This document shows positions 22,901 through 64,000 of a stretch of DNA of 64,000 nucleotides, one piece after another. Every line of letters starts with the position of its first letter. Within the stretch, counting starts at the first letter, position 1. A program made the translations under genes and the position numbers. The DNA lies in NCBI GenBank assembly GCA_046563655.1, contig CM102285.1, positions 5,890,001 through 5,954,000 of the forward strand. The letters run 5' to 3'. The notes beneath the pieces were generated by a model that was not told where the DNA came from, did not search any database, and saw only the letters and a list, made by a program, of their open reading frames with translations. The DNA is from Yuukianura sp. NJ FZ-2021 (lineage: Eukaryota).

Positions 22901-25900
22901 CCCTGGCAATGTCAATCCCGCAGATCTTCCTTCACGGGGATGTTCACCGAGAGAATTACTGGAATCCAAATGGTGGGAAGGCCCAGAATGGCTCAAGGAC
23001 AGAGAAGAAAATTGGCCTAGAGTCTACGCAGACGCAGAAGAACAGATCGTCAACTCAGAAAGACGCAAGACTACTCTAATTGCCAAAGAAACTGAGGTTA
23101 AGGAGCCCCGGTTTGGAGTTTACTTGCAAAATGTTCGTGTGGCTGCCTATGTGAGAAGATTTGTACAGAATCTGCGTCTCAAAATAGAAAATCGAGTGAC
23201 GTCACCACATTTTAGCAAACAAGAGATGTTGAAGGCCGAAGAAGACTTGATTCGTCAACTTCAGAAAGAAAGATTTGGTGATAAGTTGCAGTCGGCTGAT
23301 TGGAAAAATCTGGACGTGAAGAGGAGCGACGGACTGTGGAAAGTGACCTCAAGGCTCCTCTACAAAGATGACACAGAGAACTTCCGGACACCAGTTTTGT
23401 TGCCACGAGGGGATCCGCTAGTTAATCAATTGATTAACCATGTTCATAGGTCCATGGGGCATGCTGGGACTCAAGTCGTACTCGGAAAGTTACGTGAGAG
23501 ATACTGGATACAACAAGGAAGAAAGACGGTGGGAAAAGTTATTCGTCTGTGTGTCATTTGTCGCCGTCATACGTCAAAGAAAACCAATTGTGAATCAGCA
23601 CCACTGCCAAAGGATCGAGTTTCAACGTCATTCGCGTTTCAAACGACAGGAGTGGACTTAGCGGGACCGATCATACTCAAAGGAGGGACCAAGGCATGGA
23701 TTGTGCTGTTCACATGCGCAGTGTATAGGGGAGTACATTTGGACTTGGTCACCTCACTCTCCACTGAAGCATTCTTAGAATCCATTGAGCGCTTCATCAA
23801 TATCATTGGGCGTCCAAACCGGATCTACAGCGACAACGGGACGAATTTTGTTGGCGCTAAAAATCTGATGAAAGAACTCGACTGGAAGACACTAGAGGAA
23901 GAGTTCAAAGTCAAAGAGATCATCTGGACGTTCAATCCTCCAGCAGCACCGTGGTGGGGAGGATTTTGGGAACGTATGGTCAGATCTGTCAAGGAACTAT
24001 TCAGAAGAATGATGGGTAATGCAAAGCTAACCTACGAGCAGTCCCTTACTTGCATCTACTCAATCGCTGGAACAATCAACGATCGGCCATTGACGACTCT
24101 CACAGAAGATGACAACGATCTGACGCCGTTGACACCAAGGATGTTCATGCGGGACTTACCGGTTGGGTGTTTCCCAGAAGGAGATGAAATTGGAGCTGAC
24201 GGTTATAGAAAGGCGTACTCCAAACTACAGACAATGAAAACGACCCTACAAGCAAGATTTCGGAAGGAGTACTTAGCTATGTGTAGTGTATTCACACTTA
24301 TCTTAGTTTTAGTCTCACTAGTTTTAGTCAAAACTATGTCCCAGTATTAGGGTGTCCCCTCCCGGTTCCTGCTCAGCGCCCCCAACGCCCAGAGTAGGTA
24401 CCACGTAAATGTGTGCGACAGACAGAACCCACCCCTGACCCGTTTTGTACATAACACAATTGGCCTTAGTTCTAGAATAAACAATTGTTCATTGTTTACT
24501 TCAGTGTCTACTCGTTGCAAGTCATTTCGTAGACACAACATTTTTGGCGACGAGAGTCATGGCTACAATCGGTACTCTCAAACAGTTCGAGTCATCAGTG
24601 GACGATTTTGAGGTATGGTGTGATGTCTTCTATTCCTTCCTGGTTGCAAATTCTATCGATCAAAAAGAGGATGCTGATAAGTCACGGGCGATCTTCCTGT
24701 CATGTGTTGGAATCCCCACTTACACAGTCCTCGTAAATCTGATTTCGCCAGAGATGCCGAATAAGTTGAAGCTAGACAGAATCATTGAAGTCCTCAAAGC
24801 ACACTACAAGCCTCCACCAAAAGCACTGGCTGAAAGGTTCAAGTTTGCCAGTAGGAAGCAAAACAGTGGTGAAAGTGTTAATGCCTTTTTGGCTGAGTTA
24901 CGCAAGCTAGCAACTACTTGCAAATTTGGAAATGAACTAGAGTCCCGTCTTCGAGATCAGTTCATTTTTGGACTCTCCAGTGAACAGGCACAAAAAGTTA
25001 TTTTTTCCAAGGACGATGCCATTACCCTCTCCGAAACAGTTAAACTAGCGGTGGCTCAGGAAATGGCAAGTACCAGTACTTCACTCGTCCGGGAACAGAA
25101 TGGTCAATCTGCCGAACACGTGTTGAAAACAGTCTCTCAGAAGAAGAACACAAATGATGGTGGTAAAGGTCAATTCAACCGTAAGACCAACAAACCAACA
25201 ACTGGTAAAGGGAAAAAGTCGAATCAGTCAAATTCGTGTCCCAACTGTGGAAATACTTCACATACGAAAGCTAAAGATTGTCCACATAAAAACGTCAAGT
25301 GTCATAACTGTGCAAAATTAGGTCATTTTGCTAAATATTGTCGTTCTGAGTCTTCCAGTTCCAAGCAGAGATCACAGACGAACGATGTCAGTCAAGTCAA
25401 TAATGTCCCTGCTGACAACCAGGACATTATTCGGATTCAAGTGACCATCAATCAAGTCCCTCACGTAATGGAATTTGATACCGGATGTCGTCGCAGTATC
25501 CTATCAGAAGAATTCTGGAAGTCTTCACTTCGTTCTTCACCTCCACTTCAGAAGTCCAATCAATCATTCCGCACCTACACAAATGAAGTGTTTCATCCTA
25601 GTGGAAAAGTTTCAGCCAATCTGGGTTACAAAGATCAAGTGCACCATGTTACACTCAATGTCTCCAAAGGTACGTCACTTTTTGGGAGAGACTTGATTAG
25701 ACTAGTGAAACCGGAATGGAATGATATTGCTGAACAGTGTAACATTGTATCTTCTAATAAACTGAGTTTACAGTCCCTCCTTGCCGACTTCTCCGATATT
25801 TTCAGTGCTCCTAATGGTTGTATCAAGGACTATAAAGCAAAAATCGTACTGAAGGAAGATGCAGTTCCAAAATTCCTAAAGGCTCGACCGATCCCCTTTG

Positions 25901-28900
25901 CTTTACGTCCGAAAGTTGATGCTGAACTTGATTCAATGGAAAAGGCAGGAGTAATTGAACGAGTCGACACCAGTGAATGGGCATCCCCCATCGTCGTTGT
26001 TCCAAAAACTAACGGTAAAGTGAGAATCACTGGTGACTTTAAAAATACAGTCAATTGTCAACTTCATGTTACTCAGTACCCCCTTGCTCGTTCAGAGGAC
26101 TTGTTCAGTGTTATTGCAGGTGGTGAAAAGTTCACACGACTCGACGGTCCCGACGCTTTTCATCAGGTAGAAGTCGATGAACAGTCAAAAAAGTGTTTAG
26201 TGATTAACACTCATCGTGGTCTCTACCGATACCGTGTCCTACCTCAGGGTATAGCCTCCTCACCTGCAATCTTCCAAGAGTGCATGGACAAATTGCTCAA
26301 GGGAATCTCAATGTCCGGTTCGTTTATGGACGATACCCTAGTGAGTGGCAAAAATGATCAAGATCATCTCTCCTCGCTGAAAACAGTTTTTGAGAGGATG
26401 AGAGCTTCCAATTACAAGTTGTCAAGATCAAAGTGTCAGTTTATGGAAAAGTCCCTTGAATTTATTGGTCATGTGATCACTTCGGAAGGTATACACGTCT
26501 CCCCCGAAAAAATTCAAGCATTGTTATCCATACAGCAACCACAAAGTGTAACGGAAGTGAAATCGTTTCTCGGTCTTGTCAATTTTTATTGTCGTTTTGT
26601 TCCTTCACTCTCAGACATCTGCACCCCACTTTACGAACTAACCCGTAAAGATGTCAAGTTCAAATGGTCTAACCAGTGTCAGTCAGCGTTTGACAGAGTG
26701 AAACGTGAACTCTCAAACACTCCAGTACTCGCACACCATGATCAGTCCAAGCCGATCGGGATCAGCTGTGATGCCTCCAAGTTCGGAATCGGTGTTGTTC
26801 TTTTTCACAAGGAAAATGGATTGGAACGACCTATCGCATTCGCTTCAAAAACTCTCACTGCCGCCGAGTCTCGTTATTCACAAATCGAGAAGGAAGCACT
26901 GTCAATTGTTTTTGGAGTGAAAAAGTTTTTTCAGTATTTGTGTGGTCGTACATTTTCTATCGTCACTGATCATAAACCACTTTTGTCTATTTTTGGTTCA
27001 AGTGCAGTTCCTTCGTTTGTGGCTACTCGACTTAACAAGTGGTCACTTTATCTGAGCCAATTTAACTTTGATATTTCTTACAGAAATACCAAGGACCACG
27101 GTAATGCAGACGCACTCTCAAGGTTACCAGTCAAGTCTAATTGTTCCAGTGACGTTCTTGACTGCAGTGATGTTCACTTCCTTGCTGTAGAAAATTCAAA
27201 CACTCTTCCAGTCACCTCCAAGAAAATTCGGAACTTCATTAGTCGTGACATTGTGCTCGGAATTGTTGTACGTTACGTCAAGGACGGATGGCCCAGTCAT
27301 CTTCCAGATTCAGAAAAATACCTACAACCATTTTTCATCCGTCGTCATGAGCTCACCATTGTCCAAGGAATTTTGATGTGGGGAATTCGTGTCGTCATCC
27401 CATCAAAATTGAGACAACAGTTACTGGACGATCTTCATTCTACACACTCTGGCATTGTTCGAATGAAGAGCCTCGCCCGTCAGTTTGTTTGGTGGCCCGA
27501 GATCGACAAGGAAATTGAAAACATTGGCAAGTCATGTCAATCGTGTGGTTCTCAGCGATCAAACCCTCCAAGTGCTCCACTTCACCCGTGGGAATTTCCT
27601 GAGAGACCGTGGCAACGTCTACACGTCGACCTCGCAGGTCCATTTCTTAATCGAATGTGGTTAGTGGTCATGGACGCACATTCGAAATGGCCCGAAGTTT
27701 TTAGTCTGGCCAACAATGCATCAAGCAAATCCGTTATTGCCAAAGTTCGTGAGTGTCTCACTCGTTTTGGAATTCCAGACCAGATTGTAAGCGACAACGG
27801 AAGTCAATTTACGTCTGGCGAATTCAAAACATTCTGTTCTTCGAATGGAATACGTCATTCCACAAGCTCCGCCTACCACCCCCGTTCCAATGGGGAAGCG
27901 GAACGCTTCGTTCGTACCTTCAAGGAAAGTCTGAAGAAATCCACAGGAGATGCAGAACTCTTTCTTCAACGTTTTCTTTTCAACTACCGTATCACCCCTC
28001 ATTCAACTACTGGAGCAGCGCCATGCGAACTCCTGCAGGGAAGGAAGTTGAAATGTTTGTTGGATTTTGTACGTCCCGACGTCCAGCCCTCAGTCTCCAA
28101 CTCCCAACTTAAACAAAAGGAAAAGTTTGACCAAAAGTCAAAACAGCGTCAGTTCACCATTGGTCAACGCGTTTGGGTCCAAACATTTTCTAAAGGAGAG
28201 GAAAAATGGAGTCTGGGCACAATCAAATCTGCAATCGGTCCGGTCACGTACACAGTCGCAACAAATGACAAGGACTACAAACGTCACGTCGATCACATCT
28301 TGGATGCACCTCCACTCAAGAAGGCTGACGCAGTTGCTGAACAGTACGAGTCTCCCGCAGTAGAAGATCCACCTTTGACCTTCTCTCCGCTTAAGGCCCA
28401 ACCAGCGATCACACTCAACCCCAGTCCGGAAGTTCCAGTTCCACGTCCCGTTCCAACACAACCGACAGTCTCAGTCCCAGTTCCGGTACAACAGGCACCG
28501 ACGCCCGTCACTACCCGTCCTGTACTCCGACGCTCACAACGCCTCTTGGACAAGACACTCAACAACAGTCTCACCCAAAACAAGTGAAGGAAGGGATGGT
28601 GTAGTGTATTCACACTTATCTTAGTTTTAGTCTCACTAGTTTTAGTCAAAACTATGTCCCAGTATTAGGGTGTCCCCTCCCGGTTCCTGCTCAGCGCCCC
28701 CAACGCCCAGAGTAGGTACCACGTAAATGTGTGCGACAGACAGAACCCACCCCTGACCCGTTTTGTACATAACACAATTGGCCTTAGTTCTAGAATAAAC
28801 AATTGTTCATTGTTTAATTCAGTGTCTACTCGTTGCAAGTCATTTCGTAGACACAACACTATGCTAGTGCAGAAATCATCTGAAGGAAGTACCACTCTCA

Positions 28901-33858: not shown

Positions 33859-36800
33859 TGACCTTGGATGGGATGTCGAGTGGGATGAAGATCAGAAGGA
33901 GCCATTTCGTAATTGGTGTACAGAAATGGAATTTCTAGAGAAAATCAAGATCCCACGTCATCCATTTGCTGGAGTAAATGTGAAATCAGTCCAACTTCAT
34001 GTGTTCACGGACGCCAGTCAAGCCGCCTACGCCGGTGTCGTATTCGTGAGGGTGGAGAGTGACTTGGAAGTTTCAGTTCAGTTGTTGGCAGCAAAGTCAC
34101 GAGTCGCCCCAATCAGCAGGGAAAACAAGAAGAAAGTGACAATCCCAAGATTAGAGTTGATGGGATGTCTCATTGGAGCAAGATTGTTCACTAGTGTCAA
34201 GGCGGCTATGACAGTGAACATCGACTCAGTTCATTTTTGGACGGACTCCACCACTGCTTTAAGTTGGATCCAGCGACAGGAGAATTGGGGAACGTTCGTC
34301 GGAAATCGAGTGAAGGAGATAGGGAAGTTGACCAACGTGAACTCTTGGAAGCATGTCCCTGGCAGTGTCAATCCCGCAGATCTTCCTTCACGGGGATGTT
34401 CACCGAGAGAATTACTGGAATCCAAATGGTGGGAAGGCCCAGAATGGCTCAAGGACAGAGAAGAAAATTGGCCTAGAGTCTACGCAGACGCAGAAGAACA
34501 GATCGTCAACTCAGAAAGACGCAAGACTACTCTAATTGCCAAAGAAACTGAGGTTAAGGAGCCCCGGTTTGGAGTTTACTTGCAAAATGTTCGTGTGGCT
34601 GCCTATGTGAGAAGATTTGTACAGAATCTGCGTCTCAAAATAGAAAATCGAGTGACGTCACCACATTTTAGCAAACAAGAGATGTTGAAGGCCGAAGAAG
34701 ACTTGATTCGTCAACTTCAGAAAGAAAGATTTGGTGATAAGTTGCAGTCGGCTGATTGGAAAAATCTGGACGTGAAGAGGAGCGACGGACTGTGGAAAGT
34801 GACCTCAAGGCTCCTCTACAAAGATGACACAGAGAACTTCCGGACACCAGTTTTGTTGCCACGAGGGGATCCGCTAGTTAATCAATTGATTAACCATGTT
34901 CATAGGTCCATGGGGCATGCTGGGACTCAAGTCGTACTCGGAAAGTTACGTGAGAGATACTGGATACAACAAGGAAGAAAGACGGTGGGAAAAGTTATTC
35001 GTCTGTGTGTCATTTGTCGCCGTCATACGTCAAAGAAAACCAATTGTGAATCAGCACCACTGCCAAAGGATCGAGTTTCAACGTCATTCGCGTTTCAAAC
35101 GACAGGAGTGGACTTAGCGGGACCGATCATACTCAAAGGAGGGACCAAGGCATGGATTGTGCTGTTCACATGCGCAGTGTATAGGGGAGTACATTTGGAC
35201 TTGGTCACCTCACTCTCCACTGAAGCATTCTTAGAATCCATTGAGCGCTTCATCAATATCATTGGGCGTCCAAACCGGATCTACAGCGACAACGGGACGA
35301 ATTTTGTTGGCGCTAAAAATCTGATGAAAGAACTCGACTGGAAGACACTAGAGGAAGAGTTCAAAGTCAAAGAGATCATCTGGACGTTCAATCCTCCAGC
35401 AGCACCGTGGTGGGGAGGATTTTGGGAACGTATGGTCAGATCTGTCAAGGAACTATTCAGAAGAATGATGGGTAATGCAAAGCTAACCTACGAGCAGTCC
35501 CTTACTTGCATCTACTCAATCGCTGGAACAATCAACGATCGGCCATTGACGACTCTCACAGAAGATGACAACGATCTGACGCCGTTGACACCAAGGATGT
35601 TCATGCGGGACTTACCGGTTGGGTGTTTCCCAGAAGGAGATGAAATTGGAGCTGACGGTTATAGAAAGGCGTACTCCAAACTACAGACAATGAAAACGAC
35701 CCTACAAGCAAGATTTCGGAAGGAGTACTTAGCTATGTGTAGTGTATTCACACTTATCTTAGTTTTAGTCTCACTAGTTTTAGTCAAAACTATGTCCCAG
35801 TATTAGGGTGTCCCCTCCCGGTTCCTGCTCAGCGCCCCCAACGCCCAGAGTAGGTACCACGTAAATGTGTGCGACAGACAGAACCCACCCCTGACCCGTT
35901 TTGTACATAACACAATTGGCCTTAGTTCTAGAATAAACAATTGTTCATTGTTTACTTCAGTGTCTACTCGTTGCAAGTCATTTCGTAGACACAACATTTT
36001 TGGCGACGAGAGTCATGGCTACAATCGGTACTCTCAAACAGTTCGAGTCATCAGTGGACGATTTTGAGGTATGGTGTGATGTCTTCTATTCCTTCCTGGT
36101 TGCAAATTCTATCGATCAAAAAGAGGATGCTGATAAGTCACGGGCGATCTTCCTGTCATGTGTTGGAATCCCCACTTACACAGTCCTCGTAAATCTGATT
36201 TCGCCAGAGATGCCGAATAAGTTGAAGCTAGACAGAATCATTGAAGTCCTCAAAGCACACTACAAGCCTCCACCAAAAGCACTGGCTGAAAGGTTCAAGT
36301 TTGCCAGTAGGAAGCAAAACAGTGGTGAAAGTGTTAATGCCTTTTTGGCTGAGTTACGCAAGCTAGCAACTACTTGCAAATTTGGAAATGAACTAGAGTC
36401 CCGTCTTCGAGATCAGTTCATTTTTGGACTCTCCAGTGAACAGGCACAAAAAGTTATTTTTTCCAAGGACGATGCCATTACCCTCTCCGAAACAGTTAAA
36501 CTAGCGGTGGCTCAGGAAATGGCAAGTACCAGTACTTCACTCGTCCGGGAACAGAATGGTCAATCCGCCGAACACGTGTTGAAAACAGTCTCTCAGAAGA
36601 AGAACACAAATGATGGTGGTAAAGGTCAATCCAACCGTAAGACCAACAAACAATCAACTGGTAAAGGGAAAAAGTCGAATCAGTCAAATTCGTGTCCCAA
36701 CTGTGGAAATACTTCACATACAAAAGCTAAAGATTGTCCACATAAAAATGTCAAGTGTCATAACTGTGCAAAATTAGGTCATTTTGCTAAATATTGTCGT

Positions 36801-39800
36801 TCTGAGTCTTCCAGTTCCAAGCAGAGATCACAGACGAACGATGTCAGTCAAGTCAATAATGTCCCTGCTGACAACCAGGACATTATTCGGATTCAAGTGA
36901 CCATCAATCAAGTCCCTCACGTAATGGAATTTGATACCGGATGTCGTCGCAGTATCCTATCAGAAGAATTCTGGAAGTCTTCACTTCGTTCTTCACCTCC
37001 ACTTCAGAAGTCCAATCAATCATTCCGCACCTACACAAATGAAGTGTTTCATCCTAGTGGAAAAGTTTCAGCCAATCTGGGTTACAAAGATCAAGTGCAC
37101 CATGTTACACTCAATGTCTCCAAAGGTACGTCACTTTTTGGGAGAGACTTGATTAGACTAGTGAAACCGGAATGGAATGATATTGCTGAACAGTGTAACA
37201 TTGTATCTTCTAATAAACTGAGTTTACAGTCCCTCCTTGCCGACTTCTCCGATATTTTCAGTGCTCCTAATGGTTGTATCAAGGACTATAAAGCAAAAAT
37301 CGTACTGAAGGAAGATGCAGTTCCAAAATTCCTAAAGGCTCGACCGATCCCCTTTGCTTTACGTCCGAAAGTTGATGCTGAACTTGATTCAATGGAAAAG
37401 GCAGGAGTAATTGAACGAGTCGACACCAGTGAATGGGCATCCCCCATCGTCGTTGTTCCAAAAACTAACGGTAAAGTGAGAATCACTGGTGACTTTAAAA
37501 ATACAGTCAATTGTCAACTTCATGTTACTCAGTACCCCTTGCTCGTTCAGAGGACTTGTTCAGTGTTATTGCAGGTGGTGAAAAGTTCACACGACTCGAC
37601 GGTCCCGACGCTTTTCATCAGGTAGAAGTCGATGAACAGTCAAAAAAGTGTTTAGTGATTAACACTCATCGTGGTCTCTACCGATACCGTGTCCTACCTC
37701 AGGGTATAGCCTCCTCACCTGCAATCTTCCAAGAGTGCATGGACAAATTGCTCAAGGGAATCTCAATGTCCGGTTCGTTTATGGACGATACCCTAGTGAG
37801 TGGCAAAAATGATCAAGATCATCTCTCCTCGCTGAAAACAGTTTTTGAGAGGATGAGAGCTTCCAATTACAAGTTGTCAAGATCAAAGTGTCAGTTTATG
37901 GAAAAGTCCCTTGAATTTATTGGTCATGTGATCACTTCGGAAGGTATACACGTCTCCCCCGAAAAAATTCAAGCATTGTTATCCATACAGCAACCACAAA
38001 GTGTAACGGAAGTGAAATCGTTTCTCGGTCTTGTCAATTTTTATTGTCGTTTTGTTCCTTCACTCTCAGACATCTGCACCCCACTTTACGAACTAACCCG
38101 TAAAGATGTCAAGTTCAAATGGTCTAACCAGTGTCAGTCAGCGTTTGACAGAGTGAAACGTGAACTCTCAAACACTCCAGTACTCGCACACCATGATCAG
38201 TCCAAGCCGATCGGGATCAGCTGTGATGCCTCCAAGTTCGGAATCGGTGTTGTTCTTTTTCACAAGGAAAATGGATTGGAACGACCTATCGCATTCGCTT
38301 CAAAAACTCTCACTGCCGCCGAGTCTCGTTATTCACAAATCGAGAAGGAAGCACTGTCAATTGTTTTTGGAGTGAAAAAGTTTTTTCAGTATTTGTGTGG
38401 TCGTACATTTTCTATCGTCACTGATCATAAACCACTTTTGTCTATTTTTGGTTCAAGTGCAGTTCCTTCGTTTGTGGCTACTCGACTTAACAAGTGGTCA
38501 CTTTATCTGAGCCAATTTAACTTTGATATTTCTTACAGAAATACCAAGGACCACGGTAATGCAGACGCACTCTCAAGGTTACCAGTCAAGTCTAATTGTT
38601 CCAGTGACGTTCTTGACTGCAGTGATGTTCACTTCCTTGCTGTAGAAAATTCAAACACTCTTCCAGTCACCTCCAAGAAAATTCGGAACTTCATTAGTCG
38701 TGACATTGTGCTCGGAATTGTTGTACGTTACGTCAAGGACGGATGGCCCAGTCATCTTCCAGATTCAGAAAAATACCTACAACCATTTTTCATCCGTCGT
38801 CATGAGCTCACCATTGTCCAAGGAATTTTGATGTGGGGAATTCGTGTCGTCATCCCATCAAAATTGAGACAACAGTTACTGGACGATCTTCATTCTACAC
38901 ACTCTGGCATTGTTCGAATGAAGAGCCTCGCCCGTCAGTTTGTTTGGTGGCCCGAGATCGACAAGGAAATTGAAAACATTGGCAAGTCATGTCAATCGTG
39001 TGGTTCTCAGCGATCAAACCCTCCAAGTGCTCCACTTCACCCGTGGGAATTTCCTGAGAGACCGTGGCAACGTCTACACGTCGACCTCGCAGGTCCATTT
39101 CTTAATCGAATGTGGTTAGTGGTCATGGACGCACATTCGAAATGGCCCGAAGTTTTTAGTCTGGCCAACAATGCATCAAGCAAATCCGTTATTGCCAAAG
39201 TTCGTGAGTGTCTCACTCGTTTTGGAATTCCAGACCAGATTGTAAGCGACAACGGAAGTCAATTTACGTCTGGCGAATTCAAAACATTCTGTTCTTCGAA
39301 TGGAATACGTCATTCCACAAGCTCCGCCTACCACCCCCGTTCCAATGGGGAAGCGGAACGCTTCGTTCGTACCTTCAAGGAAAGTCTGAAGAAATCCACA
39401 GGAGATGCAGAACTCTTTCTTCAACGTTTTCTTTTCAACTACCGTATCACCCCTCATTCAACTACTGGAGCAGCGCCATGCGAACTCCTGCAGGGAAGGA
39501 AGTTGAAATGTTTGTTGGATTTTGTACGTCCCGACGTCCAGCCCTCAGTCTCCAACTCCCAACTTAAACAAAAGGAAAAGTTTGACCAAAAGTCAAAACA
39601 GCGTCAGTTCACCATTGGTCAACGCGTTTGGGTCCAAACATTTTCTAAAGGAGAGGAAAAATGGAGTCTGGGCACAATCAAATCTGCAATCGGTCCGGTC
39701 ACGTACACAGTCGCAACAAATGACAAGGACTACAAACGTCACGTCGATCACATCTTGGATGCACCTCCACTCAAGAAGGCTGACGCAGTTGCTGAACAGT

Positions 39801-41151
39801 ACGAGTCTCCCGCAGTAGAAGATCCACCTTTGACCTTCTCTCCGCTTAAGGCCCAACCAGCGATCACACTCAACCCCAGTCCGGAAGTTCCAGTTCCACG
39901 TCCCGTTCCAACACAACCGACAGTCTCAGTCCCAGTTCCGGTACAACAGGCACCGACGCCCGTCACTACCCGTCCTGTACTCCGACGCTCACAACGCCTC
40001 TTGGACAAGACACTCAACAACAGTCTCACCCAAAACAAGTGAAGGAAGGGATGGTGTAGTGTATTCACACTTATCTTAGTTTTAGTCTCACTAGTTTTAG
40101 TCAAAACTATGTCCCAGTATTAGGGTGTCCCCTCCCGGTTCCTGCTCAGCGCCCCCAACGCCCAGAGTAGGTACCACGTAAATGTGTGCGACAGACAGAA
40201 CCCACCCCTGACCCGTTTTGTACATAACACAATTGGCCTTAGTTCTAGAATAAACAATTGTTCATTGTTTAATTCAGTGTCTACTCGTTGCAAGTCATTT
40301 CGTAGACACAACACTATGCTAGTGCAGAAATCATCTGAAGGAAGTACCACTCTCAAAGTGGGTGACATCGTTCTCGTCGGAGCCGAATGGAAGAAACGTT
40401 TCCAATGGCCCTTGGGAAAAATCATGGAACTCATTCCTGGAAAAGATGGAAAAATTCGGGTGGTCAAGGTCAAAGTCTCCAACGCATCCAGTGAGAAGAA
40501 GGATTTCGGATGTCACATCTTGACTCGCCCAATCCAGCGGATCTACCCATTGGAAATTTCAAGTCCACCAGCGGAAATCACTAAAGACAAAGTTCGGAGT
40601 TTGAAAAAGCGGTCGACTAAAGTCGCTGAGCCGGAGAAGGACCAATCAGAGGAGCCTGACGAAGACATCAAAGAAACGAGATCAGGACGTAAGGTCAAGA
40701 AGCCAACTCGGTATGGATATGGATCATGGACATATTAGGATTATTAGGTTAAGTTCATGGATTATACTAGGTTAATTTTAGTGTACGACTAGTTTTAAAA
40801 GTTTCACTTTTAAAAGGTGGGAAAAAATGTTGGGAGCTGAAATTAGGTTATTTTTTGTAAATTTTAGGTTTTGACTTTTGGTATTTTTTAGAATTTGAGA
40901 TTTTGAGGGAATGGGAGAGGGAAATTCAAAATAGCGTTTTTTGTGTGTTATATTTTTAGGTTTTTTTGTTAGAAAAAGTAAGAAAAAGAAGAGAGTCGAA
41001 TTTTAGATATTCAAGAGACAGGACCAGTAAGAAAGTGTAAAAAAAGAGTTAATTGGTAAAATAAGTTAAATAAATCGATTATTCAGTAACACAGTCTACG
41101 AACAACGAAGGATTCAGTCATTCTAGCGGGTAGCAGTTGACCATCCTTACA
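33859..41151 (+). mobile_element. 5'-truncated duplicate of the BEL/Pao element (RNase H, integrase, 3' LTR 40828-41151)
   Basis: ORF 33926-35806 matches the C-terminal part of copy 1 (one N>S change); followed by GAAAT and the duplicated CYP tail. Confidence 0.93.
35738..40313 (+). mobile_element. Gypsy element copy 2 with a 1-bp frameshift
   Basis: LTRs 35738-35996 and 40055-40313; TSD CTATG; C5>C4 at about 37535 splits the ORF into 36000-37625 and 37511-40042. Confidence 0.93.
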
Positions 41152-56959: not shown

Positions 56960-57951
56960 CAGATAGGTTGTCATCAACATTTAACCAAGTTATCTATAAA
57001 GCCGCTGGAATGTTGAAAATGTAACACAAGTTGTACCTATCTCTAGCCCAGAGTTCCTATAACTACGTTAGCCAAATGGCCAAACAACCCAAAATCGCGA
57101 TGAAGCCGACAGTTCTTGAGTAACGAAAGTCAGAATCCAAACTATCTTCCTGTCGTACAGCGTTAGCGTAGTTTTCAATTGAGGTGCATCGACTCCCAGT
57201 ACAGATTTAACCAAATAGTACATAATTGAGTTAAGGCGAACTATCGCGGTATAAATCGATTAACTGTTGCCTGTTGCGTCTATTCTTGTTGCTGGAATTG
57301 TGAATGATTCTTTGTTGAAATACTTGATGATTGGAACCATGATCTTTTTTATTTTTATTTTTCTCTGTGAATCTGTGTCTTGTAAATGCAAAGGACAGTT
57401 GAATTTGTCGTGAATCCCTAAAAGACTGCCAACTACTGCCCAGAGGTGCATAAACGCTTCCATGCTTCGTGTATCACTGGGGTCAAGGCCAAATCGTTTT
57501 GGTGCAATAGTTAGTAAACAGGAAAACGAATAGTGCGATCCAGATAAATCAAACTGAGTGGCTCCAGGAGAACTGTCCAGCAACAGCTTCGTTATGTTTT
57601 GGGATGGTGGAATGTTGGAGGCATCGTCCAGTAGAGCGTTCAGTATTGTTTCAGCGTCTTCAGAAAGTGGTGGCGGTTGGATCGGAAAGCTGTGAACCAT
57701 GTGCTGTTCTCCTGACACTTCCATGTGTCGGTTCCGCAGTGCTGTCATGAATCTCCGCCCACGTGAGTTTTCATCCAGAAGATCTTCTTGCAAAACTGAA
57801 TTCATTATGCTCAATGCTCGAGACTGTTTCCGCAATGAGTGCTGCCTGGCGTGAAATTTTCCGCTTACCAGTTCTGCTTGACGAATACGCGGAGAATCGA
57901 CGACAAACAAGCTAGTGGGTGCCGAAAGTATCACCGCGAAGAAATTGTTTC
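56960..57951 (-). pseudogene. mpaB/Lcp-like oxygenase-domain gene, paralog 2 (main exon), premature stop
   Basis: ALRNRH, TQFDL, EAFMHLWAVVGSLLGIHDKFNC; a 7-bp duplication at 57264-57277 causes a stop while homology continues downstream; 5' exons not found in the window. Confidence 0.72.
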
Positions 57952-58444
57952 TGGAAAAAAATTAGTATGAGTTTTCAAAAACGAAAGATGGAGCTGCAGT
58001 TTAGAACGGCCGCTAACACCGGGACACTATTATTAGCCATAGTCATTGTTGGTGGACGCTTAAACGTGCAAGGGGCTTAATTGCCACTTCCATTGGATAT
58101 CCACTGGAAGAAACGCACCCCAAATGGGCGAAACTAAGAGTGGACGGAAGAAATCACAAAGGAAGGTTACGGTTTGGTTGTCATTTGGGCCCACAAAAAA
58201 TTGGTGAAGTATGCATTACAACATCACGAAAATTTGACACAACAACCATTATACGATGAGGAAGGGCGTGTCAAATTTTGGTGATGTTGTAAAACGTACG
58301 TATTATAAAGTTTTGTGATTGAAATTCGTCACTTTGGTTGAATAATTTAATTTGTTTGTCACAATCTGAGGAATTCCCATAGTAGCTAATGTTCAACAGC
58401 AATTCTACGTCTCTAAATTGTTGAAAACAATGCGAAACCTCAAA

Positions 58445-58690
58445 AGTTTGGAATGGTGCAGCAAGTAAAACCTAAAAGGGGAATTTGTGTAGGAGAAGAA
58501 CGAAAAAGAGGAGTTTGTGCAGGGAAAAAACGAGAATGTGGAATTGGGGCAAACAGAAAAACCGAAAAGTGGCCGGTTGTGCATCTGAAAAGCTTAATAG
58601 TTTGGAATTGTGCAACATCAAAAACCGGGAAGTTTGAAATTGTACAATATAAAGAACATAGAAGTATGCAGGTGCACAATAAAAGTACAC
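58445..58690 (+). repeat. About 30-bp degenerate tandem array; same-orientation array at 62975-63245
   Basis: Unit like GGAATTTGTGCAATGTAAAAACCCGAAAAGT on both sides of the RT ORF. Confidence 0.75.
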
Positions 58691-58853
58691 TCAAAAACTT
58701 AAGTATTCCCAGGGGGCGGCAAAAATGCCTTAGCGACCAAAACCAATTCTTTATTTGTTTACAATTTCACTCACAGTGACGTCACTCCGAGTGAAAATAC
58801 AGGTTCATCCGAGTTTTTAAGCTATTTTAAAGTTTGCGGCGAAAGTATTGAGA

Positions 58854-61800
58854 CTAAAATGCTGAAAATGCAGCGGCATGCCCGCAGACAATTGCACATG
58901 CGAGAACGTAGGATGAAGCGAAAGTATCCCGACACGTAAAATCCCACGCTAACGAACGACCAGACTTCCAAGGAATTAATGTAATGCCATCCGGTCGTTT
59001 TCCGTCAGATCTCGAACAACCGGGCGGTTCCTTGATGCTTGGAATTCCAGCTGAGCGAAGCGATCTGAAGATTAAGTCGTTGACAGAGTTATGTCTAGAA
59101 TGGCGTCCAGCGCTTTTTAAACAGCTAAGGCCGTGAAGTCCGTCGGTAGAAACTTGAGCTCCGCAAACACATTTGTGTGAAAGGCAGATATCTGAGCCGA
59201 GGCGTAGAGCACATGAGATTCTGAAGCATTCGTTGTTTAGCAGGGTGCCAAGTTGAGGAGAAGGAATCGCGTTCAGCCAGTCACCGGCATGTGGAGAAGC
59301 GACAGCGAGAAGGCGAGCTTTGTCAGTAGGAGTTGAGCACTTGCGAAGCAGCTCGTTGTAGGTACTTTGACTGATTTCAAAGTCCCATTGTCTTTGTATT
59401 TTTGGATTTTCTGGAAGCACGAACCCTTTCTCTAACCATTGTCTTGAAGCCAGATCCACAGACAGATCGGAACGTGACAGATTGCTTGGCAGAAAGAGGT
59501 CGACGAGATCAGAACAGCAGTGGATTGAAGCCAAAAATGAAACGGTAGCACTATCGACTGCATGACAGATTTCCAGACCTCCTTGGGAGACAGGAAGAGA
59601 TGATTGTCGCCAAGAGGAATCTGATACGTTGATGTTCATGATGTTCACTAAGACTTGACGAAGACAATTGTCGTAGGTTGTCAGTAGGTCGTATTCTAAG
59701 AATGATGGGAAGCAACGTAGGAAGTAAATCAGCCTCGGGGTAGAAATAGAAGCTCGTAGGAGAAATAGTGCTGCGTGGGCAGGTAGTAATGAGAGCTTAG
59801 CAGAGAGGCGACTGAAATCCTCCGTTTTCTTTTTGATTATGCGACGGCAGGAAGCAGTGGTTAAAGGTGCACCAAGCAGTTCGGCGTTTTCTTGGTTAGG
59901 GACGCCAATGTCGGCGGCAAACGCGCGAAAAGAATTCACGATGGAGCAACTTTCAGATGGATTTGAGCTGAGGATAATGATTTCACATTTCTTGAAGTTG
60001 AGTTGTAGGCCAAAAGTAGCAGCATCTTCATCAATTCGCTTCAGTTCAGATAAGACGGCATCAGGAGAGTCTCCAATGGTCGCGTCATCAAGATACCAGA
60101 CATTGAATTCCGACTTGATAGAAGTAGCCAGAGGATGGACTGTCAGGGCAAAGAGGGCTGGACTAAGGGGATCCCCCTGCTGCACACCTTGACTGGACTT
60201 GATTCGGGAGGATCCATAGAACAATTCGGAATCCGTTGAGTAGGATTGAGATACGAAATTGTAGAATTCAGGGAAGCTATGCTTGACTGATTGCAGCATT
60301 TTGTCTCTTCGAATAAGATTGAATGCGTTGCGGAAGTCTAACTTGAGCAGCACCTTAGGAGATGGATGAGGAGTATTTGTGTAGATTCTAGCAGCATGGG
60401 CGATTGCTTCTGCTCCGTTTTTCACACCAACGCCAACTTGTGTAGGACTCAAGAATGGGGTAAGATTCTTCATCATTTCGGACAGGACGAGTTTCGAAAC
60501 TAGGCGCCGCCAAACCAAGCCAATAGCAATCGGACGAATGCCTCCAGTTTTCTTCTCAATGGCGACTAGCGAGGCTCCGAAGAATAGTGGACGAATTTGA
60601 TCAGGAAGAGAACCATTAACAACGAGATTGGCTAACTTCGTAATTGAAGATATGAGGTTGATCCCTGCATCTCCCGTTGATTTTCCGATTAGCTCCTTGA
60701 GAATTTGTGGTCGCAAAGAATCTAGGCCTCCTGATGAACCATTCCGGAATGATAGGATTGACTTTGTTATTTGTAGATCATCCAAATGGATTTCGCTTGG
60801 CTGTGTTTGAACAGGAAGTTGCAATGGTTCGGGGTGTTTTGGATGTAGAAGCTGTAGGGCGGCAAGTGTGGCAGTATCTTCGGTAGCCAAAGAGTCGTCG
60901 CAGCAGAGTAGACGAACAGCTCCGTGGATGTCGCCATCAGCAAGCTTGGAGAGAATCCGAGAAGACAATTTAAAGTCTGAAGGTTTTTTCTGACTGGAGT
61001 GGAAGACGGAATTGGAGATTGAAGATGAGTGTAGGTTCAAAGGTAATGATGAAGAGAAGTTAGAAATCTTGTACTTCACCCACGTTGTTAGATTGGGAAC
61101 ATTGTCGGACTTCTTAGGTGAAGACAGGATGAAGAGAGGAAATAATAAAAGGTTTGACCAGGATTCCTTGGAATTACACGAGACGACATCATTGATCAAC
61201 TTGGAAAGGCATTCAGCCGTTGAACGTCTGGCTCCCTTCGGAACATGTTTGAGAGTGGGAACTGATGTTTTCAGATTGGCGAGCAGTAGACCGAGGTCTT
61301 GGTTTTGAGATTTATTAAATTCATTTGACGAAAAGTTTGACCAGGTAATACCACAGTAGGAACGATCAGCATGTCTGCGACCACCGGCACGAGTGATGGT
61401 CAAATCGGGGAATAGTTTGTGTAACTTGGATCCCAGTGTAGCTTCAACAACCGGACGAATCTTGTTTGAATCACTGTACTCACGGTATCTTGATTTGAGG
61501 TCAAGCTTTGTTATCGTAGACCCAGGACATGAATTAATGTTAGATGAAATCCATTCTTCAGTGAGCCTGACGTAGTGTGACGAGTTGGTAAAATTGGGTA
61601 AGGATGGTGAGGAAGTCGAAGTTTGCTGAGATGACACTGGAGGTTCAGTTGATTCACCGTCTTCGGCAACTGGTGAAAAGCTATACGCGGCTTCGTTGGT
61701 TGAAGGAAAGCAAATTTCTGGTACTGAAGTACAGGAACCGTGATTCGATGCCGGAAGTGATGTGGTATAGGCACCGAGCTGATTCGATGCAGGAACTGAT

Positions 61801-62633
61801 GTAGTGCAGGGACCGAACTGATTCGATGCAGGAACTGATGTAGAACAGGAACCGAGTTCGTTCGACGCAGGAACTGATGTAGAACAGGAACCGAGCTGAT
61901 TCGATGCAGGAACTGATGTAGAACAGGAACTGAGATGATGCGATGCAGGAACTGATGTAGAACAGGAACTGAGTTGATTCGATGCAGGAACTGGTGTAGA
62001 ACAGGAACCGATGAGATTTGATGCAGGAATTGGTGTAGTATAAGAACCGAGCTGATTCGATGTAGGAACTGATGTAGAACAGGAACTGAGCTGATTCGAT
62101 GTAGGAATTGATGTAGAATAGGGACCGAGCTGATTCGATGCAGGAACTGATGTAGGACAGGAACTGAGTTGATTCGATGCAGGAACTGATGTAGAATAGG
62201 GACCGAGCTGATTCGATGCAGGAACTGATGTAGGACATGAACTGTGTTGATTCGATGCACGAACTGATGTAGAACAGGAACCGATGAGATTCGGTGCAGG
62301 AATTGAAGTAGTATATGAACCGAGCTGATTCGATGTAGGAACTGATGTAGAACAGGAACTGAGCTGATTCGATGTAGGAATTGATGTAGAATAGGAACCG
62401 AGCTGATTCGATGCAGGAACTGATGTAGGACAGGAACTGAGTTGATTCGATGCAGGAACTGATATAGAACAGGAACCGGTGAGATTCGGTGCAGGAATTG
62501 AAGTAGTATATGAACCGGGCTGATTTGATGATGAAAAACTGCAGATCGATGAATGAAATGGAGAAGAAACGGGAGAAGGAGGAATGGAAGTTGATTTCAT
62601 TTTACTTCTATTTTTTGTTTTTCGCTGAGGCAT
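58854..62633 (-). CDS. CRE-clade-like non-LTR retrotransposon polyprotein: 13-aa repeats, RFX-like winged helix, RT, zinc knuckle, truncated restriction-like endonuclease
   Basis: RT motifs GIRPIAIG, LDFRNAFN, GVQQGDPLSP, WYLDD; C-terminal CVCG..HGLSC..RHSRHN..KEP..KRPDG..AWDFT. 1259 aa from MPQRK; the frame is open up to 62783. Confidence 0.9.
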   Translation of the reverse strand: MPQRKTKNRSKMKSTSIPPSPVSSPFHSSICSFSSSNQPGSYTTSIPAPNLTGSCSISVPASNQLSSCPTSVPASNQLGSYSTSIPTSNQLSSCSTSVPTSNQLGSYTTSIPAPNLIGSCSTSVRASNQHSSCPTSVPASNQLGPYSTSVPASNQLSSCPTSVPASNQLGPYSTSIPTSNQLSSCSTSVPTSNQLGSYTTPIPASNLIGSCSTPVPASNQLSSCSTSVPASHHLSSCSTSVPASNQLGSCSTSVPASNELGSCSTSVPASNQFGPCTTSVPASNQLGAYTTSLPASNHGSCTSVPEICFPSTNEAAYSFSPVAEDGESTEPPVSSQQTSTSSPSLPNFTNSSHYVRLTEEWISSNINSCPGSTITKLDLKSRYREYSDSNKIRPVVEATLGSKLHKLFPDLTITRAGGRRHADRSYCGITWSNFSSNEFNKSQNQDLGLLLANLKTSVPTLKHVPKGARRSTAECLSKLINDVVSCNSKESWSNLLLFPLFILSSPKKSDNVPNLTTWVKYKISNFSSSLPLNLHSSSISNSVFHSSQKKPSDFKLSSRILSKLADGDIHGAVRLLCCDDSLATEDTATLAALQLLHPKHPEPLQLPVQTQPSEIHLDDLQITKSILSFRNGSSGGLDSLRPQILKELIGKSTGDAGINLISSITKLANLVVNGSLPDQIRPLFFGASLVAIEKKTGGIRPIAIGLVWRRLVSKLVLSEMMKNLTPFLSPTQVGVGVKNGAEAIAHAARIYTNTPHPSPKVLLKLDFRNAFNLIRRDKMLQSVKHSFPEFYNFVSQSYSTDSELFYGSSRIKSSQGVQQGDPLSPALFALTVHPLATSIKSEFNVWYLDDATIGDSPDAVLSELKRIDEDAATFGLQLNFKKCEIIILSSNPSESCSIVNSFRAFAADIGVPNQENAELLGAPLTTASCRRIIKKKTEDFSRLSAKLSLLPAHAALFLLRASISTPRLIYFLRCFPSFLEYDLLTTYDNCLRQVLVNIMNINVSDSSWRQSSLPVSQGGLEICHAVDSATVSFLASIHCCSDLVDLFLPSNLSRSDLSVDLASRQWLEKGFVLPENPKIQRQWDFEISQSTYNELLRKCSTPTDKARLLAVASPHAGDWLNAIPSPQLGTLLNNECFRISCALRLGSDICLSHKCVCGAQVSTDGLHGLSCLKSAGRHSRHNSVNDLIFRSLRSAGIPSIKEPPGCSRSDGKRPDGITLIPWKSGRSLAWDFTCRDTFASSYVLACAIVCGHAAAFSAF
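61725..62525 (-). repeat. Coding 39-bp minisatellite, about 20 units (xTSVPASNQLxSC/Y)
   Basis: Unit GAACTGATGTAGAACAGGAACTGAGTTGATTCGATGCAG on plus; in frame with the RT ORF. Confidence 0.95.
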
Positions 62634-64000
62634 GACTGTTGGTATGGAGATGAGGTCAGGGGTCAATCGACTTGTTGAAAACTTTCGGAGTTGTTGGACC
62701 AGAGAAGGTGACCGTGAGACCAAGTGACAAAACTGGTCCGTAGAGGAAGAATTGGCCACGTATCTCTGTGAAACTTGACACAAGTTGATCAGTGGACGAA
62801 GGGCTTTGATGTAGTATAAGAAAAAGTTAGATATGTGACGAATAAAAGCTTAAAAAATTCTGAAAATGAGGAGCAAAATTTTCGTGTTTACACTTTTTCA
62901 CTTTTACACTTTTTCATTTTAAACGACCGTACCTATAAGTATTCTATTTACCTTGAAGTATTCCTACTAAGAAATTGAAAAGGTTGAAAGTTTACAATGC
63001 ACAAATTCAAAAACTTGAAATTGTGCATGTCAAAACTGAACTGGTGTGAAATTATGCAGTCTGGCAACCAAAAAGTTAAGTGTGCAATTTGAAAACCCAT
63101 AAAGATGGTAGATGTGCAATGTAAAAACCCGAAACGTGGAATTTGTGCAATGTAAAAATCCGAAAAGTGGTATTTGTGCATCGTAAAAACACGAAATGTG
63201 GAATTTGTGCACTATGAAAACTAGAAGGTGGAAATTGTGCATTTTAGGAAAACAATTTTGCTATAAGTACACACGGGTTGTGGGCCCAGCAATTTACATG
63301 AAGAGAAGGCGGAATGGGCCCAAAATCAACCAATTCCCGTAGGTGTCCTTTTGAGCGAAATTCAAATCAATCAATACAAATTTAAATTTACGAAATGATA
63401 TCAGAAAGCTTTACTTGCGCGATTATAGTTAATATATTATTCAAAACGTATTTAAAAACAATATACGCATAGTTTTTGAACTGTGTTTTTCACGTTTTTT
63501 AGTTGTTTGTAGTCAGTTAATTCAAATTCAGAGGGCAAAGCTCCACCCCTTTGGATTCATCCATTTCTTCCACTGGATATCCAGCCGTGGATGAAATGTC
63601 GGAAAAGTAGATATCCACCAACACTAATCATAGTATAGTCGACTATAGCTCAGAAATGGTAAAAACGCTAACGTTGACCTTTGACCTCGAGCGACGTCAC
63701 TCAAGGTCATACGCTATCACGCTATACACAAAGGTTGTTGATGCTATACACAAGCCTCGATAGATGAACGACTTTTGCAAATGTAACTTTTCATATTAGC
63801 GGGGGTTGACCTTGACCTTTAACTCGGAAGGAGTTAGTTGACCACTGGTATGATATTCAATTGTGAACATCTCCGGCACCCATGGTGTTGAATGGGGAAA
63901 ATAAATCCGTTTCCGAGATAATTGTGACTAACGGAACGGCCAGACAGGCAGACAGACATGGTAGCTACATAAAATAGCTTTTGCTACTTAATAAAACTAG

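Follow-up and report, generated by a model that had tools for sequence, protein, structure and literature searches.

Can a winged-helix DNA-binding domain of the RFX type be a genuine, inherited part of a retrotransposon, and what would it do there? The question is raised by a locus of Yuukianura sp. NJ FZ-2021 (assembly GCA_046563655.1) that lies in a stretch of 64,000 nucleotides of contig CM102285.1 (positions 5,890,001 to 5,954,000 of the forward strand), referred to here as the window. An earlier reading of this DNA, made from its letters alone and called below the sequence-only reading, described a non-LTR retrotransposon with an apparent RFX-type winged helix upstream of the reverse transcriptase (RT). 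The present analysis points to a copy, about 4.24 kb long, of a long interspersed nuclear element (LINE) with one open reading frame (ORF) and a restriction-like endonuclease (RLE). Its RFX helix is genuine and inherited and, by analogy with R2 elements, would most likely anchor the ribonucleoprotein at or near the insertion site, an interpretation held with moderate confidence.

The 70-amino-acid (aa) peptide quoted in the sequence-only reading corresponds to aa 410-479 of the 1309-aa ORF, at window positions 61347-61556 of the minus strand. The range reported for it, 61340..61570, is correct for the domain, with the frame beginning at 61556 and not at 61570; taken literally, the range reads out of frame. 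Pfam assigned this part of the ORF (aa 408-481) to RFX_DNA_binding (PF02257) with an E-value of 4.5e-9. The score of 37.2 bits exceeds the curated cut-off, which is 27, and the match spans profile positions 4-77 of 79. When an 87-aa piece was compared with the PDB sequences by phmmer, only two matches were obtained at E ≤ 10, namely RFX5 (1.6e-5) and RFX1 (2e-4). The segment was then modelled with AlphaFold2 on an alignment (A2) of the window segment and 11 homologous segments, which gave a mean predicted local distance difference test (pLDDT) score of 86.2, 71 of the 101 residues scoring 90 or higher, and the topology H-S-H-H-S-S. Foldseek against the PDB superposed the model on RFX5 with a target-normalised TM-score of 0.90 and a root-mean-square deviation (rmsd) of 1.2 Å, and on RFX1 with 0.89 and 1.3 Å; these were the only matches at E ≤ 1e-3, all others having E > 0.1. 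A Foldseek-independent comparison with VIA over 48,161 chains returned three matches at Z ≥ 8: RFX5 (14.6), RFX1 (12.9) and the origin-binding domain of phage P4 (8.3), the two RFX structures superposing at 1.3-1.4 Å. By the Pfam profile, the PDB sequence search and the predicted fold, the window domain is a true RFX-type winged helix, with a likeness far beyond chance. The reported absence of an N-terminal C2H2 finger was likewise confirmed, since none was found by Pfam in the window ORF or by a C2H2-spacing regular expression over the 495 aa that precede the conserved core.

A relation to the C-terminal winged helix-turn-helix of D5 primases, which had been offered as an alternative origin, is less favoured. 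D5-type primase-helicases (Pox_D5; 1ka8; the PrimPol of African swine fever virus) do contain a related winged helix, with a Z of 8.3 to 1ka8 and a Foldseek E > 0.1 for the viral PrimPol, but no Pox_D5 match was found at E ≤ 1 in the window domain or elsewhere in the window ORF, and the fold scores for RFX are much higher (Z 14.6 and 12.9). Weak Pox_D5 matches in Pfam are common among canonical RFX proteins. With cellular RFX factors (the DNA-binding domain of RFX1, 1dp7; RFX5, 8zjr) the window domain shares the Pfam family, the winged-helix fold and the R-x-G-x-R part of the wing, kept here as R-x-G-G-R. It differs from them in its wing tip and in being fused to an RT and an RLE, while the BCD_RFX and RFX5_N domains are theirs only, none being found by Pfam in the window ORF.

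Regarding the element that carries the domain, sequence and modelled structure indicate that the window family is a restriction-like-endonuclease (R2-like) non-LTR retrotransposon. The window ORF itself gave only RFX_DNA_binding and RVT_1 as Pfam matches at E ≤ 1. For its closest intact relative, the protein P0002 encoded by metagenome locus L001, all ten PDB sequence matches at E ≤ 0.01 were reverse transcriptases or proteins of non-LTR retrotransposons, comprising three R2 entries, four LINE-1 ORF2p, the 'RNA-directed DNA polymerase' 8c8j, and two entries named 'Reverse transcriptase-like protein', 8gh6 and 8ibw. The best of them were R2 proteins (E 7e-9), with the likeness confined to one part of the RT. 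A model of the C-terminal 229 aa of L001, built on the 27-row alignment A3 with a pLDDT of 89.4, matched R2 proteins in all seven Foldseek hits (E ≤ 1e-3) and all seven VIA hits (Z ≥ 8), aligning to the C-terminal zinc-knuckle and endonuclease region of R2 (8gh6 residues 888-1107) with Z from 13.7 to 15.3; the next folds, PA endonuclease and Prp8, reached Z 7.4. The CCHC and PD...WD motifs are invariant in the 27 rows. In alignment A1, of ten sequences, the CCHC residues are invariant or nearly so, and the knuckle lies inside the stretch that superposes on R2 proteins. The restriction-endonuclease type proposed from the letters alone thus holds, on the strength of the RVT_1 match, the R2-like RT matches and the modelled C-terminal fold of the relative.

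Compared with R2 elements (R2Bm, R2Tg and R2 of Platysternon; 8gh6, 9dou, 9nl2, 9nl3, 8ibw-z), the architecture is alike in having a single ORF with a DNA-binding module N-terminal to the RT, followed by a CCHC knuckle and an RLE of the same fold (Z 13.7-15.3 and rmsd 3.0-3.4 Å over 183-192 residues, for the model of the relative). R2 elements carry C2H2 zinc finger(s) plus Myb, insert into 28S ribosomal DNA (rDNA) and possess a ribozyme like that of hepatitis delta virus. In the window, by contrast, the module is an RFX domain (with an ING-type PHD finger in relatives), the copy sits within a 31-bp satellite, and Rfam showed no ribozyme at E ≤ 1 over 57500-64000, where its only two matches, to Xist_exon1 and SNORD15, were at chance level. 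The R2 clade proper was therefore rejected as the place of the element, given that no zinc-finger or Myb domain appears in Pfam at E ≤ 1, that the flanks are satellite and not rDNA, and that no ribozyme is seen by Rfam. The family may belong to the HERO clade, which is a guess of ours, or to CRE, as assumed in the sequence-only reading. A search of the ESM Atlas with P0002 gave only unnamed RVT_1 clusters (arthropod, sponge, cnidarian and plant labels; best score 0.90), with no clade information.

The features of the locus are collected in Table 1.

Table 1. Features of the RFX-bearing element and of its flanks, in window coordinates.
Feature	Position	Strand	Basis or remark
Whole element, ~4.24 kb	58711..62954	-	Two parts of the same 31-bp satellite on either side, candidate target-site duplications, contig joints; ends good to a few bases
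Single ORF, 1309 codons from upstream stop (1259 aa from first ATG)	58854..62783	-	
Probable 5' untranslated region (UTR)	62634..62954	-	First ATG of the ORF at 62633 (MPQRKTKNRSK...)
In-frame 39-bp tandem repeat, 20.3 copies	61741..62530	-	Tandem Repeats Finder: 83% matches, score 1048
RFX-type winged-helix domain, aa 408-481	61341..61562	-	Pfam PF02257, PDB sequence matches, AlphaFold2 model, Foldseek, VIA
Conserved region between RFX and RT (DLG..LA.LK..VPTL+.VPKGAR ... KLADGD ... GSAGGLD)	60561..61298	-	
Reverse transcriptase, aa 742-966, YLDD at aa 897	59886..60560	-	Pfam RVT_1, E 1.3e-19
CCHC zinc knuckle, C1205-x-C1207-x9-H1217-x3-C1221	59121..59171	-	Invariant in 27-row alignment A3
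First part of restriction-like endonuclease (RPDG ... WDFTC), incomplete	58857..59120	-	PD and WD motifs invariant
3' UTR with AATAAA motif, no poly(A) tail	58711..58853	-	Read directly
5' copy of candidate target-site duplication, GGAATACTTCAAGG	62951..62964	-	
3' copy of candidate target-site duplication, GGAATACTTAAG	58698..58709	-	
~31-bp satellite, 5' side of element, unit GCACAAATTCCACNTTTCGGGTTTTTACATT on minus strand	62990..63240	.	
Same ~31-bp satellite, 3' side of element, more degenerate	58430..58690	.	

The conserved region between RFX and RT has many invariant columns and was alignable in all ten sequences of A1; in most metagenome relatives the tblastn match begins within it, at query residues ~500-511. 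The relatives L065 and L002, too, open with a short basic stretch. The 39-bp repeat encodes a 13-aa unit rich in Ser, Pro and Thr, and the three listed contig joints that skip parts of the repeat region remove 687, 753 and 597 bases, each a multiple of 3. In-frame tandem repeats with units unrelated in sequence stand directly upstream of RFX in three relatives: 20 copies of 39 bp in the window, 13 copies of 42 bp in L001 (645-1207), and Pro-rich repeats at the N-terminus of Folsomia P0014.

The window copy is incomplete at its C-terminus. Its ORF stops at the position of residue 900 of the 988 of P0002, and full-length relatives run about 88 aa further, the missing tail comprising a nearly invariant K, the ET.G strand and two nuclease helices. 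In run X1, two contigs follow the window as far as 58869 and carry different sequence beyond it, as would be expected of a deletion breakpoint close to the stop codon. The PHD finger of the relatives is also absent, and no remnant of it was found upstream in the window by tblastn with the PHD-bearing proteins P0003-P0005. Having lost the PHD together with the final ~88 aa of its endonuclease, the conserved lysine among them, the copy is, to go by its sequence, defective and non-autonomous, and it belongs to the family by descent. The missing ~88 aa and the lack of a PHD remnant would also suit a decaying relic, in which the RFX domain of the window sub-lineage, with PHD lost, wing diverged and copy truncated, has nothing functional left; the Pfam score of 37 bits in the window, compared with 69.8 bits in P0005, goes in the same direction. 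A relic is nevertheless considered improbable, because the 1309-codon frame is otherwise open, the domain lies above the Pfam cut-off with a confident predicted fold, the sisters L001 and L002 retain RFX, all three listed skips of the repeat region keep the frame, and near-identical contig variants coexist with diverged ones.

Those variants were found in run X1, whose contigs showed 10/319 versus 39/297 differences from the window over 59010-59373, and 0/301 versus 28/307 over 60627-60927. As several contig variants per internal segment occur in one run, the family is multicopy; the call was made from contig variants and joints, and depth was not taken as copy number. The contig joints in these public runs agree with an insertion. 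A contig of X3 links 58699 to 62961 across 4 intervening letters and resembles an empty site, and X1-X3 each have one contig in which 58677 is connected to 62972 across 37 letters. The element family is multicopy and mobile, and the coexistence of near-identical and diverged variants suggests recent activity. Relatives at ~86-96% identity were present in run X4, which bears another organism label and comes from another study. Within the window itself no second copy was detected by tblastn, and no repeats of the element ends, of long terminal repeat (LTR) or terminal inverted repeat (TIR) type, were found elsewhere. Both copies of the candidate target-site duplication share the exact 9-mer GGAATACTT and then AAG (GGAATACTT(C)AAG), for a duplication of 9-12 nt; by our own arithmetic an exact 9-mer shared by two ~60-nt segments is expected about once per 70 trials and is alone modest evidence. 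The satellite parts on the two sides (58516-58646 and 63113-63241) match at 71%.

Whether the RFX domain is inherited was assessed on the relatives of the element. Among 77 database homologues at E ≤ 1e-3, Pfam found RFX in 6 (P0002, P0003, P0004, P0005, P0009 and P0014) and a PHD in 9. A hidden Markov model (HMM) of the RFX segment was positive at 5 of the 80 metagenome loci kept out of 458 relatives (L001, L002, L003, L005 and L065), with L001 matching by construction, as it encodes P0002. The RFX-bearing sequences came from NCBI Folsomia entries, JGI metagenomes and Logan assemblies. In these relatives the domain immediately precedes the conserved core and usually follows an ING-type PHD: L065 holds PHD and RFX in one frame, L002 has the PHD upstream in a shifted frame, and L005 starts within the PHD end. 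The ING type was recognised in L065, where each of the top 20 of 30 PDB matches of the PHD is an ING, Yng, Png2 or Pho23 protein (best E 3.2e-16).

A FastTree phylogeny was computed from 68 rows and 809 core columns with the RFX region excluded; P0066-P0078 were not part of it, nor were L065 and the 76 other loci. A single clade of 23 rows, with an SH-like support of 99, took in all 12 RFX rows. Among the 11 non-RFX rows of this clade, six have no more than 15 residues upstream of the core, so that their state is unreadable, four (P0010, P0016, P0017 and P0018) show C2H2-like spacing at the RFX position, and P0007 has neither. In the 12-row sister clade, six rows carry a PHD and no RFX, and the gap from PHD to core is only 15-27 aa, which leaves no room for a winged helix. 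As far as domain searches and tree can tell, these data show that the RFX domain was inherited within one sub-clade and is not a chance fusion. They also show, at the same level, that the N-terminal binding module was exchanged during the evolution of the family, given the C2H2-like fingers or the lone PHD that close relatives carry at the RFX position. The proposal that this lineage swapped in a winged helix is borne out by those relatives, and a chance fusion in a single copy, a doubt raised together with it, is ruled out by 12 RFX rows from different sources in one clade.

The same result bears on the idea that the pairing of RFX and RT is an artefact, produced by a host RFX exon next to a LINE, by mis-assembly or by a domesticated host gene. 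Such an origin could be read into the name of Folsomia P0009, 'RFX-like transcription factor daf-19', under which the protein was taken for a host gene. It is hardly credible, though, for a domain order repeated in 12 sequences of different sources within one clade, and in the window both domains share one uninterrupted intronless frame, BCD_RFX and RFX5_N domains are missing, and the element is multicopy with junction contigs.

The spread of the domain was gauged by a profile search of 1.84 billion representative proteins, which returned 1832 RFX matches at E ≤ 1e-3. Among the 150 matches listed, P0002 was the only full RT protein, and five short proteins (P0090, P0098, P0101, P0111 and P0135), two of them with a PHD, show the core-start motif of the family after RFX. 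Of the listed matches, 35 were scanned with Pfam and proved to be mostly cellular RFX factors (with BCD_RFX or RFX5_N) or multi-RFX proteins. No donor RFX subfamily could be named, as BLASTP of the RFX segments of the elements against 149 representatives led mostly to short fragments. The multi-RFX proteins form an observation of their own: P0079-P0085, of 867-1089 aa, each carry four or five RFX domains in tandem without a strong match to any further Pfam domain, and P0086-P0092 and P0095 have two or three. To our knowledge, proteins such as P0079-P0085 have not been described.

As to what the domain does, the N-terminal zinc-finger and Myb domains of R2 hold the protein on the target DNA for nicking and primed reverse transcription, and ING fingers read histone H3 tails. 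By analogy with R2, the RFX helix would most likely keep the ribonucleoprotein anchored to DNA at the insertion site or close to it, and the ING-type PHD of the relatives may add recognition of the H3 tail. A more specific version, which we regard as rather doubtful, is that PHD (mark on the H3 tail) and RFX (DNA) make up a two-part reader that steers target-primed reverse transcription to particular chromatin and sequence contexts and that replaced the zinc-finger module of the sisters.

Several points weigh against an inherited, DNA-anchoring RFX helix. On the tree, the RFX label needs at least 5 changes, with six rows of the clade cut at the N-terminus and five without RFX. The phylogeny comes from FastTree only, and long outgroup branches and odd composition were flagged, the window row included. 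Nine of the 12 RFX rows seeded the HMM, so that the independent HMM detections are L002, L003 and L005 only; Pfam independently confirms seven of the nine seed rows (the window, P0002, P0003, P0004, P0005, P0009 and P0014). The C2H2-like motifs of the relatives lie below Pfam significance, none reaching E ≤ 0.01. Runs X1-X3 are one sample, possibly the source of the window, and are not independent. The link between RFX and target choice is inferred. A single insertion was studied, in the 31-bp satellite with no X-box nearby, and X-box half-sites are at background (1 in ~2 kb of flanks versus 0.97 per kb over the window). Finally, the wing tip reads RHADR in the window and GNSKY or GQSKY in RFX1 and RFX5.

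In RFX proteins, a conserved basic wing contacts DNA. The change at the tip may mean, from the letters, that DNA binding has been altered or lost in the window sub-lineage; the relatives P0005 and L005 retain SKY and SQY there. Because the tip differs from canonical RFX, the recognised sequence need not be an X-box, and no full X-box occurs in the 64-kb window. A shared target could not be read in the flanks of the RFX-bearing metagenome loci, of which L001 has an internal in-frame repeat only and L002 no tandem repeat, and the UTRs of these loci are too diverged for alignment.

The unlike wing tip and the lack of an X-box near the one insertion are also what would be expected if the domain were real and inherited and yet did not choose the site, serving instead as a tether to chromatin or to host RFX partners, in binding of the element's own RNA, in nuclear import or in dimerisation, with specificity residing in the endonuclease and the linker. 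The pairing with an ING-type PHD in relatives suits general chromatin tethering, and many HERO elements are described as not target-specific in PMC4640811. This account is considered possible. It is opposed by the R-x-G-G-R core kept in the wing, by the position of the domain, exactly where relatives have their C2H2-like fingers, and by what is generally known of R2, whose corresponding N-terminal domains bind target DNA. Anchoring of the ribonucleoprotein at or near the insertion site by the RFX helix remains the favoured reading.

Other RLE elements offer a further comparison. According to PMC4640811, HERO, CRE and NeSL/Utopia elements have one ORF of ~1000 aa with RT and RLE and variable N-termini, with repeats or microsatellites as the targets of several families. 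Zinc fingers and a Ulp1-like protease are the N-terminal domains that its passages on these elements mention, RFX or a winged helix not being among them. On that description the window family resembles them in its single ORF with RT and RLE, and is unlike them in bearing RFX instead of zinc fingers or a Ulp1-like protease. PHD fingers have also been reported in LINEs of the CR1/L2 (APE) type, where PMC3708506 places them in ORF1p or before the APE domain. The encoding of a PHD by a LINE is thus common to both, as far as that source goes, but in the relatives of the window element the finger is of ING type, stands at the N-terminus of an RT-RLE protein and is followed by RFX.

No description of RFX in a retrotransposon was found in full-text searches of the literature, which did not extend to Repbase, to Dfam or to the inventory of RLE elements by Fell et al. 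that PMC13580325 cites. The sequence-only reading, to which no described element of this architecture was known, is supported as to papers, none having been found; it missed database entries of Folsomia candida that already combine RFX and RT under automatic names, 'RFX-like transcription factor daf-19' (P0009) being an example. The nearest named proteins of the window ORF are those of Folsomia candida, which points to a springtail as the probable host.

Some further observations were made on the locus and the family. A contig of run X1 leads from 62955 back to 58710 across 7 intervening letters, as in a head-to-tail pair of copies. At 62916, 8-10 contigs per run match toward the 5' flank and have a different sequence on the inner side of the element, which may reflect other sub-families sharing the first ~40 nt or another overlapping repeat. 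Outside the satellite and the element, high-copy sequences lie at 58007-58213 and 63389-63625, and contigs join ~58104-58160 directly to ~63349-63550. When the outer flanks were compared, only a 20-nt inverted match (58094-58113 / 63564-63583) and one local hairpin were seen; the LINE and its satellite may lie inside a larger TIR-type element with short derivatives. Elsewhere in the window, ORFs of BEL/Pao-type LTR retrotransposons (Peptidase_A17, DUF1759, RVT_1, integrase zinc-binding) and of Ty3-like ones (RVT_1, RNase H, rve) occupy 19362-28587 and 33926-40042, these ORF sets being partly duplicated ~11.4 kb apart. A 281-aa ORF at 16949-17794 with a partial cytochrome P450 domain (E 5.8e-18) is probably an exon of a host gene. 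Distant members of the RT family have deubiquitinase-type domains after the endonuclease, UCH in P0026 (aa 1172-1500, E 8e-59) and a weak OTU in P0066 (aa 1807-1883); such domains could stem from fused gene models, or they could be genuine cargo, in which case the Ulp1 protease of NeSL would be a parallel.

For genome annotation, the finding means that 'RFX transcription factor' entries of Folsomia candida are retrotransposon proteins and can mislead counts of the transcription-factor family. Reviews present R2-like elements as the model for retrotransposition into specific sites and report work to engineer them for inserting genes, and the way in which the N-terminus sets the target is central to that work. 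A family whose close relatives bear any of three heads on the same RT-RLE body (C2H2-like fingers, a lone ING-type PHD, or a PHD together with RFX) would show the head to be naturally swappable, and it would supply matched natural variants for the effect of the head on target choice. If the two-part reader proved true, it would represent a natural retargeting of an R2-like retrotransposon by a swap of its DNA-binding head.

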